From contig JARVGK010000020.1 of assembly GCA_029762535.1 (NCBI GenBank), positions 1 through 54,822 on the forward strand: DNA of 54,822 nt. Reading direction: 5' to 3'. Both the position numbers and the translations under genes were made by a program. Below the pieces are notes generated by a model that was not told where the DNA came from, ran no database searches, and saw only the letters and a program-made list of their open reading frames with translations. This stretch comes from Thermoplasmatota archaeon (GTDB lineage: Archaea; Thermoplasmatota; Penumbrarchaeia; Penumbrarchaeales; Penumbrarchaeaceae). Below are positions 42,545 through 48,851 of the stretch, one piece after another. How positions within the stretch are numbered: position 1 is the first letter of the stretch; every line of letters starts with the position of its first letter.

Positions 42545-43780
42545 ATGATAGTGTTCATATTCATCATGCTGCTGCTCGCGGCTTCCCTCCTCTTCGGGAA
42601 GATCGCCGAGAGGATGGAACAGCCCCCCATAGTCGGAAACATCATAGGAGGTATCGTTTTCGGGCCTCTGTTCCTGGCACTTCTCAAATGGCTTTACGGC
42701 ATGATCGAGATTCCTGATATCAAGGTCCTCTACACATTACTGGACCCTGACCTCATGGCCCCCGAGGTGGAATTCCTCCTGGACTTCTCCGTAGTCGTCC
42801 TCATGTTCGCATCCGGGTTCGAGACCAGGATCAGGGACTTCATAGCCTCTTTCAGAAGGGGGATCGTCACTGCGTCCATTGGCGTCGTTCTCCCATTCGC
42901 TCTCGGGTTCATCGGGACCTACCTTTACCTGGGCGACTGGATCATTTCCCTTTATGTCGGAGGCGCCCTGTCCATTACGGCAGTTGCCCTCTCTGTGGCC
43001 TCGCTCATCAACATCGACGCCATACACACCCGTTTCGGCATGACGATAATAAACGCCGCCATCGTGGATGATATCATCGGCATACTGCTTCTGACAGTCA
43101 TCCTATCCATATCAAGGACGGGGCGGGTCCCAGGGGTATCGTTCCTCCTCGGGATCTTCGTGCTCGCAGTGATATTCGTCCTGTTCGTGCTCTTCCTCTC
43201 GCCAATGCTTTTGAAACTGATATACAGGAGGTCAAGGGAACTGAGATCAACCGAGGGGCTCGGCATCACCATACTGGTGGCCGCCCTGTTCGGATTCATA
43301 GCCCATATCATGGGGCTGCACCTGATGATAGGAGCCTTCCTGGGAGGCATGGCCGTGAGGGAGACTCTCAGCAAGAGAGTGCAACAGTCTATCAAGAAAT
43401 GGGCCTTTGGCTTCTTCGCCCCGATCTTCTTCGCCTACGTGGGTTACTCCGTGACCCTCTCAGGAGCCGCCATATCCCCTCTTCTCCCGCTGATAATCGT
43501 CCTCGGATTCATTGGAAAGGTGTTCGGAGCCGGCATCGGCGCCAAGATATCCGGACTGAAATGGTCCGAATCGCTGCTTGTCGGACTCGGCATGAACGGG
43601 AGGGCGGCCGTGGACCTCATCCTGGCATCCGTTGCCCTGAACGCCGGCATGATAGGAAGGGACCTGTTCTCCGTCCTCGTCCTTAACGCAGGGGTCATGG
43701 CCGTGCTCACGCCCATTTTGATAAAGGCCACCTATAAGAGGTTCTCCAAAAGGGGATGGATAGAGGGGAACGGATCATAG
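42545..43780 (+). CDS. Cation:proton antiporter (CPA2/NapA-like)
   Basis: ALSITAV, AAIVDDIIG, GAFLGG, PIFF, GMNGR. Confidence 0.92.
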   Translation: MIVFIFIMLLLAASLLFGKIAERMEQPPIVGNIIGGIVFGPLFLALLKWLYGMIEIPDIKVLYTLLDPDLMAPEVEFLLDFSVVVLMFASGFETRIRDFIASFRRGIVTASIGVVLPFALGFIGTYLYLGDWIISLYVGGALSITAVALSVASLINIDAIHTRFGMTIINAAIVDDIIGILLLTVILSISRTGRVPGVSFLLGIFVLAVIFVLFVLFLSPMLLKLIYRRSRELRSTEGLGITILVAALFGFIAHIMGLHLMIGAFLGGMAVRETLSKRVQQSIKKWAFGFFAPIFFAYVGYSVTLSGAAISPLLPLIIVLGFIGKVFGAGIGAKISGLKWSESLLVGLGMNGRAAVDLILASVALNAGMIGRDLFSVLVLNAGVMAVLTPILIKATYKRFSKRGWIEGNGS

Positions 43781-44318: not shown

Positions 44319-44464
44319 CTTATCCCTTCATCCGGGCATTCCGGCAAGGAACGCGAACCGGCACACATGTATATAAAATCCACTTCGAATCCGTATTTTA
44401 TATCTAAAAAACTATAAATACAACCCTACGGGATGGTCATGGCCCATATATGGGAGGATATATC

Positions 44465-46609
44465 TTGGCGGTAAAGAGCACTTCAAAAAAAAAGAGTGCC
44501 GAGAATTCGGAGCCGGACCTGGACGATCCCGGCCTTTACATCAACAGGGAGATATCCTGGCTGAAGCTCAATGAGAGGATACTCGAGGAGAGCCTGGACC
44601 CCTCACAGCCGCTATTGGAGCGCATGAAGTTCCTGGCGATATGCGGATCCAACCTCGACGAGTTCTTCATGGTCAGGGTATCAGGGATCAAGAGGCAGTT
44701 CGAGGAGGGGGTCTTAAAGCTCCCGGCGGACGGCATGAGCCCCAGCGAGCAGCTGGTAGAGATAAGGAAGGAGGTCAAACTGCTGCTCAAAAGGTACACC
44801 AGATGCTGGAGCGATCTCATTCAGGAGCTTGGGAAGAACGGCATAGAACTGACAAGGGTCAAGGACCTCAACAGGAAGCAGAAGGACGCGCTCTACTCCT
44901 TCTTCAAGGAGAACATATTCCCCACGCTCACGCCCCTCGCCATGGATTTCTCCCATCCGTTCCCGTTCATTTCGAACCTCAGCCTTAACCTGGCAGTGGT
45001 CATAGAGGATGGCGATCTGCCCCAGAGATACGCCCGCGTCAAGGTCCCGAACAATATATTCCCCAGGCTATTCTCCATAACCGAGGACGGAAAGAAGATA
45101 CTGCCCTTAGCGCAGCTCAAGGTCGCGAGGAACATATCGTTGGTCCTCCTTGAGGACATCTGTTCGAGCAACATATCTGAGCTCTTCCCAGGGCTTAACG
45201 TCGGCGCCACATATCCGTTCAGGACGACCCGCGATGCGGAGATCGAGATCGCCATAGACCAGGCAGGGGACCTGATGACGGCCATACAGGAGGGGATGGA
45301 GGAAAGAAAGTTCGGAAGGCCCGTCAGGCTGGAGATCGACGCTTCGATGCCTGAAAAGGTTAAGGACCAGTTCGCCAAGAACCTCAAGCTCACGAACGAC
45401 TTCGTTTACAAGTTCGACGGCCCGCTTGGCATCGTGGACATGTGGCAACTGCTGAAGATCGATCGGCCGGACCTCAAGGACCGACCATTCAAGCATCACA
45501 TACCGCACGAGCTCTCGGAGGAGCACAATCTGTTCGCCTCCATTTCGAAGAGGGATTATGTGTTCTACTATCCATACGACAGCTTCCAGGTCATCGTGAA
45601 CCTTATCCGACAGGCGGCGAGGGACCCTGATGTCCTCTCCATAAAGACATCGCTATACAGAATAGACAGGGACTCACCCGTCATCGAGGCGCTACTCAAG
45701 GCCAGGGAAGAGGACAAGGCCGTATCCGCCTTGGTGGAGCTCAAGGCTAAGTTCGATGAGGAGAACAATATTGAATGGGCACATGCCCTCGAACAGGCCG
45801 GAGTGCACGTCGTATACGGGGTCGAGGACCTGAAGGTGCATTCGAAGATCCTCCAGATCGTGAGAAGGGAGGGGGGTGGGATCAGATTCTATTCATACAT
45901 ATCGTCGGGCAATTTCAATGCGATGACCGCGAAGGTCTACGCGGATATCGCTTACCTCACCTCTAACAGAGAGATCGGAACGGAGGTCGCAGAGGTGTTC
46001 AACTCACTTACAGGATATTCGAGAAAGACGGACTACAAGCATCTTCTCGTGGCCCCTCACACCCTCAGGAACGATATCCTCTCATCCATCGAGCGCGAGA
46101 TCTCCCTCCACAAGGAGAAGGGCGGCGGCCACATCGCCCTGAAGCTTAACGGATTGACGGACAGGGGCATCATCAAGGCCCTCTACAAAGCGTCCATCGC
46201 AGGGGTCAGGGTCGTTCTCAATGTCAGAGGGCTCTGTTCGATCAAGCCGGGGATACCCGGGATCAGCGAGAACGTATCCGAGACATCCATAATCGGGCGG
46301 TTCCTGGAACATGCGCGAATTTACTATTTCAGCAACGGCGGGGATGAGGAGGTCCTCATAGGGTCCTCCGACCTGATGCCCAGGAACCTATACCGGAGGA
46401 TAGAGGTCCTTCTCAGGGTGCCCGATCCCCGGTTGAAAAAGGCGATCATAGAGAAGATGCTCAACGTTCATCTCTCAGACAACTTCAAGGCCAGGAGGCT
46501 TCTTCCCGACGGGACATGGGTCAGAGACCATCCTGAAAAGGGACATGATCCATTCAACTCACAGGAATACCTGATATCCAACAGGGGGTTATGGCATGAA
46601 ATTCAGTAA
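44465..46609 (+). CDS. ppk1: Polyphosphate kinase 1
   Basis: NREISWL, SNLDEFFMVRV, HPFPFISN, VELKAKFDEENN, KVHSK, GRFLEH, RNLYRRIE. TTG start after GGAGG. Confidence 0.97.
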   Translation: MAVKSTSKKKSAENSEPDLDDPGLYINREISWLKLNERILEESLDPSQPLLERMKFLAICGSNLDEFFMVRVSGIKRQFEEGVLKLPADGMSPSEQLVEIRKEVKLLLKRYTRCWSDLIQELGKNGIELTRVKDLNRKQKDALYSFFKENIFPTLTPLAMDFSHPFPFISNLSLNLAVVIEDGDLPQRYARVKVPNNIFPRLFSITEDGKKILPLAQLKVARNISLVLLEDICSSNISELFPGLNVGATYPFRTTRDAEIEIAIDQAGDLMTAIQEGMEERKFGRPVRLEIDASMPEKVKDQFAKNLKLTNDFVYKFDGPLGIVDMWQLLKIDRPDLKDRPFKHHIPHELSEEHNLFASISKRDYVFYYPYDSFQVIVNLIRQAARDPDVLSIKTSLYRIDRDSPVIEALLKAREEDKAVSALVELKAKFDEENNIEWAHALEQAGVHVVYGVEDLKVHSKILQIVRREGGGIRFYSYISSGNFNAMTAKVYADIAYLTSNREIGTEVAEVFNSLTGYSRKTDYKHLLVAPHTLRNDILSSIEREISLHKEKGGGHIALKLNGLTDRGIIKALYKASIAGVRVVLNVRGLCSIKPGIPGISENVSETSIIGRFLEHARIYYFSNGGDEEVLIGSSDLMPRNLYRRIEVLLRVPDPRLKKAIIEKMLNVHLSDNFKARRLLPDGTWVRDHPEKGHDPFNSQEYLISNRGLWHEIQ

Positions 46610-48851
46610 AGATGTTCGCCGCTTCGGGGCCATCACCATTGTGGAACGTATCGAGAAGCTGTCCAAGCATATGGATAGAGCAAGGAGCATGGAGGATCCG
46701 GAGGACGTGCATCAGCTCCGAGTGACATCGAGGAGGCTACGGGCCGCTCTCCCGGTCTTCAAATCCTGCTTCCAGAAGAGGAGATTTGAAGGATATATCA
46801 AAGGAATGAAGAAAGTGACACGATCATTGGGCATGGCCAGGGACCTCGATGTCCAGATCATTTACTTGAATTCACTTCTGAAGGAACATCGAAGGAAGCC
46901 TATGGGGCCGGCTCTGAGATACCTGATCGACCATAGGAAAAATGAGAGAACCGCTCTCCAGGGAGAGGTGATCAAGGCGCTGAATGACCTGTCATCCTCC
47001 GGGCTTCTTGATTCTATTATGAAGGATTGCAGAGGGGCGGATGATCTGAATGGAGACGAACCCTGGCCGGACTCGCTCTTCATGCTCTTCCGGGACAATC
47101 TGACAGGCCCTCTCGATCAACTCCATCAGCTCTCCTCCTCGCTCCAAGACGAGGATAAGAAGGAAGAGCACCACGAGATGAGGATCGCTGCCAAGCGCCT
47201 GAGGTACACTCTTGAGCTCTTCTCTAGGATCTTTGAGGACGGGCTTGCAAATGAGATATCGTACCTCAAGAAGCTTCAGGACGTTCTTGGTGAGATCCAC
47301 GATTGCGATGTCTGGTCGATGCAGCTGCCCAAGCTGAAGGATGTTGTCCCCGAGTCCGCCGAATTGGGAAAGGGGCTCGACCTTTTTATGGAACATATCA
47401 AGGACAGGCGGTCCCAACTCTTCGTCAAGGCGGGGGAGGTGTGGTCACTTAACGCCGAGAGCCTGTCCTTTCTGAGGAAGATGGCCGGATCGGATTCATA
47501 CCTTCCGGCCTCTCGCTTCCCCAAGGTGGCCTTCATATCCGACATACACGGCAATTTTCACGCGCTCGGATCCGTCATGGATGATGCGCTCGCCAGAGGC
47601 GCTTCCCTCTTCATCAACGCAGGGGATTCGGTAGGGTTCGGCGCGCTGCCTGGAAAGGTCATCGAGGAGATATCGGCAGATAATTTCCTAAACATCTGCG
47701 GCAACTTCGACCTGGAGATGCTTGATTTCGGCAAGAAGGGAAAGAAGGGTTCCGCCGAAAGGGAAAAATCCATCTCTCTCAAGCATGCCAAAGGATCGCT
47801 GACCGGGTCCCAAAAGAGGACGATCGCTGGTTTTCCCTCAAAGCGGGACCTGATGATCGGACCTTTGAAGGTGCATGTCGTACATTCGAGCCCCCTTTCA
47901 AAAAAGGAACATGTCACCATGGATATGCCCGAACCTCGTCTCTCGGAACTTTTGACTTCATGCGGGGCGGACCTTCTCGTGATCGGACATTCACATGAGC
48001 AGTTCCTCAGGGACTGCAGCGGGGGGATGGTGCTCAATCCCGGTTCTGTAGGCAGGCCCGGCGACGGCGACCCAAAGGCGGCGTACGCGATCATGGACGC
48101 CAACACCGGCGAGGTCCAGCTGATAAGGGTCGATTACGACATCGATGCCGCCGTGGAGGCGATACGAAGCGAGGGCCTGCCCGAACGTTTTTCCCAGATG
48201 CTGATAAGGGGAAGAGCGCTCGAGGTCGTGATGGAGGAGGAAAAGATAATGGATTCGCTTGGCCGTTCCGACGAGGACCTGCTATCCTTCAGGGAGAAGG
48301 TGATGGCCACGGGGTCCGTTTTCGATCCGGATCCCGGCCATACACAGAGAGTGACCTCGCTATCGCTTTCCCTCTTCGACCAGCTCCAATCGATACACAT
48401 GATGGGAAGGGAGGAGAGGCACCTTCTGGATTGCTCGGCTCTGCTTCACGACATCGGTTGGAGCAGGGGCGGGGGCAAACACCACGTATCGTCAATGCTT
48501 ATGGTACTCAATGATAATGAAATGCCTTTCGGCATCAGGGAGAGATATATTGTCGCATCGATCGCCAGATATCATAACTCTCTCCCGAAGTCCAAACATC
48601 CCAACTATTCCATCCTCAATCAGATAGATCGAAGGACCGTTTCAATGCTTTCCTCCTTACTCAGGATCGGCGACTCTCTGGACGCCTCCCATGAGGGGAA
48701 GGTCAAAGGCATCGAGGTTCGTCTTTCCGAGGAGAGGATCGAATTGTTAGCCAGTGCTTCGGAGCCGATCCCTCAGGAGATCGAGAAGTTCTCGGTGAAG
48801 AAGGACCTTTTCGAGAAGGTCTTCAAGCGTTCGATCGTACTCTCAGCCTGA
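46596..48851 (+). CDS. CHAD + calcineurin-like metallophosphoesterase (YfcE-like) + Ppx-type HD domain fusion
   Basis: CHAD: HQLRVTSRRLR, RDLDV, HEMRIAAKRLRY, LQDVLGEIHD. MPE: SDIHGN, GDSVG, GNFD, GHSH, NPGSVG. HD: ALLHDIG, HH, ARYH, LRIGDSLD. Confidence 0.9.
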   Translation: MKFSKDVRRFGAITIVERIEKLSKHMDRARSMEDPEDVHQLRVTSRRLRAALPVFKSCFQKRRFEGYIKGMKKVTRSLGMARDLDVQIIYLNSLLKEHRRKPMGPALRYLIDHRKNERTALQGEVIKALNDLSSSGLLDSIMKDCRGADDLNGDEPWPDSLFMLFRDNLTGPLDQLHQLSSSLQDEDKKEEHHEMRIAAKRLRYTLELFSRIFEDGLANEISYLKKLQDVLGEIHDCDVWSMQLPKLKDVVPESAELGKGLDLFMEHIKDRRSQLFVKAGEVWSLNAESLSFLRKMAGSDSYLPASRFPKVAFISDIHGNFHALGSVMDDALARGASLFINAGDSVGFGALPGKVIEEISADNFLNICGNFDLEMLDFGKKGKKGSAEREKSISLKHAKGSLTGSQKRTIAGFPSKRDLMIGPLKVHVVHSSPLSKKEHVTMDMPEPRLSELLTSCGADLLVIGHSHEQFLRDCSGGMVLNPGSVGRPGDGDPKAAYAIMDANTGEVQLIRVDYDIDAAVEAIRSEGLPERFSQMLIRGRALEVVMEEEKIMDSLGRSDEDLLSFREKVMATGSVFDPDPGHTQRVTSLSLSLFDQLQSIHMMGREERHLLDCSALLHDIGWSRGGGKHHVSSMLMVLNDNEMPFGIRERYIVASIARYHNSLPKSKHPNYSILNQIDRRTVSMLSSLLRIGDSLDASHEGKVKGIEVRLSEERIELLASASEPIPQEIEKFSVKKDLFEKVFKRSIVLSA

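Follow-up and report, generated by a model that had tools for sequence, protein, structure and literature searches.

How does an archaeon that makes polyphosphate (polyP) break it down again if no exopolyphosphatase can be found in its genome? In prokaryotes, polyP breakdown is usually attributed to the exopolyphosphatase Ppx and the kinase PPK2 alone, and to our knowledge many polyP-making archaea are without a known exopolyphosphatase. The question is raised by a stretch of 54,822 nucleotides (the window) of contig JARVGK010000020.1, from a Thermoplasmatota archaeon of the family Penumbrarchaeaceae (GenBank assembly GCA_029762535.1). Here the polyphosphate kinase gene ppk1 is followed by a gene for a fusion protein that joins a CHAD domain, a metallophosphoesterase (MPE) domain and the HD-type domain III of Ppx/GppA (CHAD-MPE-HD). 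We infer, with a probability of about 55%, that this fusion is a polyP-docked hydrolase that uses a binuclear metal centre to cleave the phosphoanhydride bonds of polyP; its substrate, its mode of cleavage and its tethering to granules are the predicted parts of this proposal. The novelty of this case lies in its Ppx-less setting and in the either-or distribution of the fusion and Ppx across genomes. As the genome yielded no Ppx, the window provides the cleanest test case in nature.

The initial annotation of this locus had described an N-terminal CHAD domain, a central calcineurin-like domain and a C-terminal HD domain like that of Ppx/GppA, and the Pfam searches bear out this architecture (Table 1). 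The five metal motifs that it had listed as intact (DxH, GD, GNxD, H and GHxH) were all found in the MPE domain, as D316-I-H318, G343-D344, G369-N370-F-D372, H430 and G464-H465-S-H467. It had also reported that the ASKHA catalytic domain of Ppx is missing, and indeed neither the fusion protein nor the window has a match to ASKHA domains I-II (Ppx-GppA, PF02541). Thus, the PPX mechanism cannot be used by the fusion. A CYTH domain was likewise not matched by Pfam in the fusion protein.

The CHAD helical bundle extends to about residue 297 (residues 5-297 are all-helical in an AlphaFold2 model). The MPE domain carries a basic two-helix insertion (residues 373-415) and a SapH-type C-terminal extension, and domain III is followed by a beta/alpha tail that reaches residue 751. 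The AlphaFold2 model, built on the homologue alignment, has a predicted local distance difference test score (pLDDT) of 92.5 and a predicted template modelling score (pTM) of 0.86 and suggests that the three parts pack as one compact unit. When we compared the parts to known structures with Foldseek, the N-terminal bundle matched the Chlorobium CHAD-polyP complex 6qva (TM 0.71) and the tail matched the PPX/GppA C-terminal domains 3rf0, 8jgo and 1u6z. The tail aligns with residues 344-518 of the PPX of Deinococcus radiodurans (E 2.4e-19) and is 31% identical to the tail of a Bathyarchaeia Ppx. By its sequence the fusion thus shares a tail with Ppx/GppA, but it does not carry the ASKHA domains by which that family is defined.

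To score conservation we used an alignment of 130 full-length homologues with 32-87% identity, across which every one of the three domains is preserved and purifying selection is evident. For the metal ligands of the MPE domain and its NPGSVGR loop, conservation in this alignment is complete or reaches at least 90%. The same level of conservation was observed for H39, R42, R46, R49, R82, H193, R196, K200, R203 and H235 in the CHAD domain and for H582, H618-D619, H629, Y659-H660, D693, D696 and H699 in domain III. Family-wide, the MPE insertion, which lies between motifs III and IV, consists to 22.6% of Lys and Arg (net charge +4). The CHAD part (net +5.5) and the HD part (net +5.2) are both basic, whereas the MPE core is acidic.

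CHAD domains have been shown experimentally to bind polyP and were proposed to recruit substrate for the enzymes to which they are fused (PMC6537752), and the C-terminal domains of PPX affect polyP hydrolysis (PMC11234463). In the fusion, the CHAD bundle and the PPX-tail module (domain III, HD-type) would hold a polyP chain or the surface of a granule. The MPE domain, with its active site flanked by the Lys/Arg-rich helical insertion, would cut P-O-P bonds, either internally or from the ends. Hydrolysis of polyP by an MPE fold has a precedent in the yeast proteins Ppn1 and Ppn2, which work with cofactors of the Zn, Co or Mn type. These vacuolar endopolyphosphatases reportedly belong to the calcineurin-like metallophosphatase superfamily (Gerasimaite and Mayer, 2017). 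They differ from the fusion in being eukaryotic and vacuolar and in having neither a CHAD domain nor a PPX tail.

Among the closest known systems are the CYTH(TTM)-CHAD short-chain polyphosphatases of the Escherichia coli YgiF type, in which CHAD (a domain said to have been defined by Iyer and Aravind in 2002) is also a polyP-binding module fused to a metal-dependent phosphoanhydride hydrolase, both roles being predicted in our case. However, the catalytic fold is here a calcineurin-like MPE and not a triphosphate tunnel. Moreover, CHAD is N-terminal, a PPX-tail domain is added and the position of the gene after ppk1 is fixed. With the Ppx/GppA proteins (E. coli PPX, 1u6z/2flo; D. radiodurans PPX, 8jgo) the fusion has in common the homologous domain III/HD module and the operon partner ppk1, whereas it is wholly without their ASKHA catalytic domains.

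A further line of evidence is the association with ppk1. In the window, the ATG of the fusion gene lies 14 nt within ppk1, whose TAA occupies 46607-46609; the reported overlap of the gene with the ppk1 stop thus holds. A GGGGG run stands 7 nt 5' of the ATG, and the fusion protein would be made by translational coupling with PPK1. We examined the operon context in 79 loci that encode relatives and observed that ppk1 ends a few bases from the start of the fusion gene in about 70 of them. The linkage was seen again in a sample of 251 genomes of the phylum, where ppk1 lies directly upstream in all 16 genomes that carry the fusion. The common operon consists of ppk1, the fusion gene and ppx, and a convergent PPK2 gene with one domain usually comes next. 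In 67/79 loci a canonical Ppx starts at, or overlaps, the fusion stop, and this downstream Ppx is complete, with ASKHA and domain III (Pfam check on L010:10262-11836).

The gene order is retained where the protein itself has been split or extended. In Methanospirillum purgamenti and a related metagenome-assembled genome (MAG), CHAD-MPE (630-635 aa), HD (199-216 aa) and Ppx are encoded separately (L076:7959-11900, L079:3479-7400). Two bacteria-like loci encode an MPE-HD protein of 440-451 aa with a separate CHAD gene immediately 5': one has the order ppk1, CHAD, MPE-HD, ppx in a Bacillota-like neighbourhood with CtsR and McsB (L081:2834-8936), the other the order ppk1, CHAD, MPE-HD (L082:1083-5964). 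Another bacteria-like contig has ppk1 followed by MPE-HD only. Lastly, a Bathyarchaeota MAG has an in-frame open reading frame (ORF) of 1301 codons that encodes CHAD-MPE-HD together with a full Ppx (L008:7950-11855); this may be a natural fusion of five domains, or else the product of a lost stop codon or an assembly error. The link to ppk1 has thus outlasted the splitting and joining of the genes and their transfer between domains of life, which speaks strongly for a function in polyP metabolism.

The initial annotation had proposed that the MPE replaces the catalytic module of Ppx. As an account of the origin or the general role of the family this does not hold: canonical ppx lies directly downstream in most loci, and the family was thus not originally a substitute for Ppx. 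The proposal stands only for lineages that are secondarily without Ppx, such as that of the window. In the genome of the window (2.96 Mb, 93% complete, 1% contamination), neither Ppx-GppA nor DHHA2, the PPX1-type family, had a match, and thus a complete Ppx, which would have spoken against the proposal, was sought and not found in the 93% of the genome that is covered. A lack of linkage to ppk1 elsewhere would also have counted against it, but the two are linked almost everywhere. The CHAD domain of the fusion is the only one of this genome, and the neighbouring PPK2 gene is likewise its only PPK2.

To compare the distribution of the fusion to that of Ppx, we used the phylum sample, in which 48 genomes have PPK1, 16 the fusion and 52 Ppx. 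The 48 PPK1-bearing genomes divide into 32 with Ppx only, eight with both and eight with the fusion only, and none has neither. Where both are present they are always adjacent. Six of the fusion-only genomes belong to the family of the window, the other two to one further family each. One genus of the window's family has a genome with ppk1-fusion-ppx and two genomes with ppk1-fusion and no ppx; this mixed state within a genus points to a recent loss of ppx. In a second sample, of 201 Bathyarchaeia genomes, PPK1 was found in 13, of which nine have the fusion and Ppx, two the fusion only and two Ppx but not the complete fusion; no genome was without either. Ppx was also not found in one Methanolliviera and one Thermoflexales genome, the latter with the two-domain form. 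Such a distribution would be expected of a module that is able to stand in for Ppx, and we take it as a pattern and not as a probability.

In most hosts, the fusion would act beside the downstream canonical Ppx. Next to an exo-acting Ppx, the module would make most sense as an internal cutter or as an enzyme with a preference for a different chain length. In the lineage of the window, where ppx is missing, the fusion would be the only candidate for the release of inorganic phosphate (Pi) from long-chain polyP. PPK1 would make polyP and the fusion would release Pi or shorten the chains, and the convergent PPK2 of the polyphosphate:AMP phosphotransferase (PAP) type would be the energy-conserving exit, through which energy is recovered into ADP. 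Triphosphate could be handled by a stand-alone CYTH/TTM protein of 190 aa, a candidate triphosphatase and the only CYTH protein of the genome, which is encoded away from the polyP locus (G000:C80:89353-89895, minus strand). More tentatively, and at somewhat less than even odds, the module may be the first MPE-type polyphosphatase of prokaryotes, possibly an archaeal endopolyphosphatase, that covers the role of Ppx by itself and would for this reason always be present in PPK1-bearing archaea that lack Ppx.

The proposed substrate has to be weighed against the nearest relatives of the MPE domain. These are SapH (3qfm/3qfn, TM 0.82), 3rqz, 1nnw and 2gju, a subfamily of enzymes of about 250 residues (TM 0.75-0.82 by Foldseek, E 1e-12 to 7e-16) that have in common with the fusion an insertion after GNxD and a C-terminal helical extension. 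Unlike the fusion, they are single-domain proteins, with about 24-27% identity to it, and 3rqz, 1nnw and 2gju are uncharacterised; the fusion is set apart from them by its Lys/Arg-rich insertion and by two flanking modules that would bind polyP. The YfcE family is more distant. The score of its model TIGR00040 (49.3 bits) is below the cut-off of 56.25, and the fold is nearer to SapH/3rqz than to YfcE (TM 0.82 vs 0.62-0.64). The fusion is thus a member of the MPE superfamily, and the NCBIfam cut-off places it outside YfcE proper.

SapH (Spr1479) of Streptococcus pneumoniae, the nearest characterised MPE, is an asymmetric diadenosine tetraphosphate (Ap4A) hydrolase/phosphodiesterase by its PDB title, an enzyme that cuts the phosphoanhydride chain of Ap4A. 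For this reason, an Ap4A or nucleoside-polyphosphate hydrolase has to be kept as an alternative: the MPE would cleave Ap4A, adenosine tetra-/pentaphosphate or similar side products of PPK1 and PPK2 at the polyP surface, and the CHAD domain and PPX tail would serve for localisation only. Coexistence with Ppx would then involve no redundancy. In addition, enzymes of the PPK2 type over-phosphorylate nucleotides. However, with an identity of just 24-25% to SapH a transfer of substrate is weak, and a basic insertion together with two putative polyP-binding modules exceeds what a localisation tag needs. This reading would also fail to explain why the loss of Ppx is confined to genomes with the module. 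We thus consider a granule-tethered nucleotide hydrolase unlikely.

A second alternative concerns the tail. It might hold the real active site, or an additional one, for instance for short-chain polyP or a nucleotide, while the MPE has another job. The HD ligand residues H582, H618-D619 and D693 are present, and these as well as D696 and H699 are invariant in the 130 sequences; furthermore, the HD part is a gene of its own in Methanospirillum, with 199 aa in the shorter case. Yet ordinary PPX tails, for which no catalysis is known, have retained most of these residues, and the HD profile (PF01966, residues 582-675, E 1e-4) scores at the borderline (22.9 bits, cut-off 22). PMC11234463 reports no catalytic function for domain III. 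A dual hydrolase of this kind appears quite improbable to us.

The strict translational coupling to ppk1 would also fit a regulatory protein phosphatase that removes the phosphohistidine of autophosphorylated PPK1, or else strips proteins of bound polyP or phosphate, and thereby balances synthesis and degradation at the granule. Many MPEs dephosphorylate proteins, and lambda phosphatase and PP5 are among the weaker Foldseek matches of the MPE domain. Moreover, in other archaea the gene for the phosphohistidine phosphatase SixA is repeatedly found beside those for polyP kinases (PMC12995831). However, the MPE domain is structurally most similar to small-molecule MPEs and not to phosphatases of the PPP family, and this reading accounts neither for the PPX tail nor for the either-or distribution relative to Ppx. 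This possibility is slimmer still. Finally, a non-catalytic granule scaffold (a phasin-like 'phosin') with enzyme-like domains that merely bind polyP or metal would recall the stand-alone CHAD proteins described as granule-associated and of no known activity (PMC10892726), and Vps29, an MPE fold that can be non-catalytic, but we deem it very improbable, as non-catalytic MPEs typically lose their metal ligands and here these are invariant or nearly so in archaea and bacteria.

Several points speak against the fusion being a polyphosphatase. For the closest MPEs of characterised activity, the substrates are nucleotides or artificial diesters and not polyP. A canonical Ppx adjoins the fusion in most genomes, so that a second polyphosphatase looks redundant unless it differs in mode or in chain length. 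Ordinary PPX tails, such as that of D. radiodurans, retain the HD motifs as well; these motifs do not demonstrate a second catalytic site. As to the distribution, a Fisher test on the phylum sample gives p = 3e-5, a value that is overstated because the genomes are related and many of them are incomplete MAGs. The pattern is drawn from related genomes and MAGs of 73-97% completeness, and both fusion-only cases of the Bathyarchaeia sit at contig ends. In the literature we found no paper on the CHAD-MPE-HD family and no assayed member.

The initial annotation had considered the architecture unusual. This was not borne out, and by sequence CHAD-MPE-HD is a large family and no oddity of one genome. 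A word-indexed search returned 1168 relatives, the best 120 of which share the three-domain architecture. Bathyarchaeia and Thermoplasmata MAGs account for the majority of these 120, which are annotated only as 'YfcE family phosphodiesterase', 'putative phosphoesterase' or 'CHAD domain-containing protein'. With an exhaustive search we obtained 477 clusters at 50% identity (E < 1e-30), including many two-domain MPE-HD proteins (440-480 residues) and some CHAD-MPE forms. Among species-representative genomes, 517 stretches encode relatives, and the family extends over more than 500 genomes. Relatives of Methanomassiliicoccus have the fused form (L053, L060). The hosts include Bathyarchaeia, Thermoplasmatota, Methanolliviera, Methanomassiliicoccales, the cultured isolate Methanospirillum purgamenti, Synergistales, Brocadiia and Chloroflexota.

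Some further observations concern single lineages. In the Bathyarchaeia loci L003, L007, L008, L027, L037, L038 and L044, two copies of the fusion occur within about 10 kb, which suggests a tandem duplication of the polyP module. In one Bathyarchaeia genome, ppk1 is followed by a CHAD-only ORF of 360 aa and by ppx, with no space for MPE-HD (G395:C10:324544-327551). In Haloferax volcanii, an Mn/Co-dependent polyP-degrading activity of about 45 kDa has been described whose gene was not identified (PMC13318637). We considered an MPE-HD relative as its source and rejected it, as the H. volcanii genome has no match to Ppx-GppA_III.

The features of the locus are listed in Table 1. The fusion gene and the PPK2/PAP gene are convergent and their 3' ends share 9 nt (48843-48851), so that there is no space for a terminator of each gene's own. 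On the 5' side of the polyP locus lies a gene of the Na+/H+ exchanger family on the same strand (411 aa, 42545-43780), and between the two there is an ORF of 177 aa on the minus strand.

Table 1. Features of the polyP locus, in positions of the window
Feature	Position	Strand	Basis
AT-rich stretch with TATA-like boxes 5' of ppk1, likely the operon promoter	44360..44425	+	sequence read
ppk1, polyphosphate kinase 1, 719 aa	44450..46609	+	four of four PPK1 Pfam domains; TIGR03705, 786.8 bits
CHAD-MPE-HD fusion gene, 751 aa	46596..48851	+	ORF and Pfam
CHAD domain	46644..47318	+	PF05235, residues 17-241, E 1.3e-45, 156.6 bits vs cut-off 25.6
MPE domain, residues 310-545	47523..48230	+	PF12850 (Metallophos_2), residues 310-504, E 8.4e-19, 68.5 bits
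Ppx/GppA domain III (HD-type), residues 572-714	48309..48737	+	PF21447, E 3.6e-13, 50.2 bits vs cut-off 27.3
PPK2, two-domain, polyphosphate:AMP phosphotransferase (PAP) type, 502 aa	48843..50351	-	TIGR03708, 599 bits vs cut-off 547.65; two PPK2 domains

If the fusion is indeed a polyphosphatase, the CHAD-MPE-HD enzyme, whose gene comes after ppk1 in hundreds of anaerobic archaea as well as in some bacteria, would be a third route of polyP breakdown. If it cuts internally, prokaryotes would gain an endopolyphosphatase. The value of the window is that it offers a Ppx-free background in which to ask whether prokaryotes have an MPE-type polyphosphatase.

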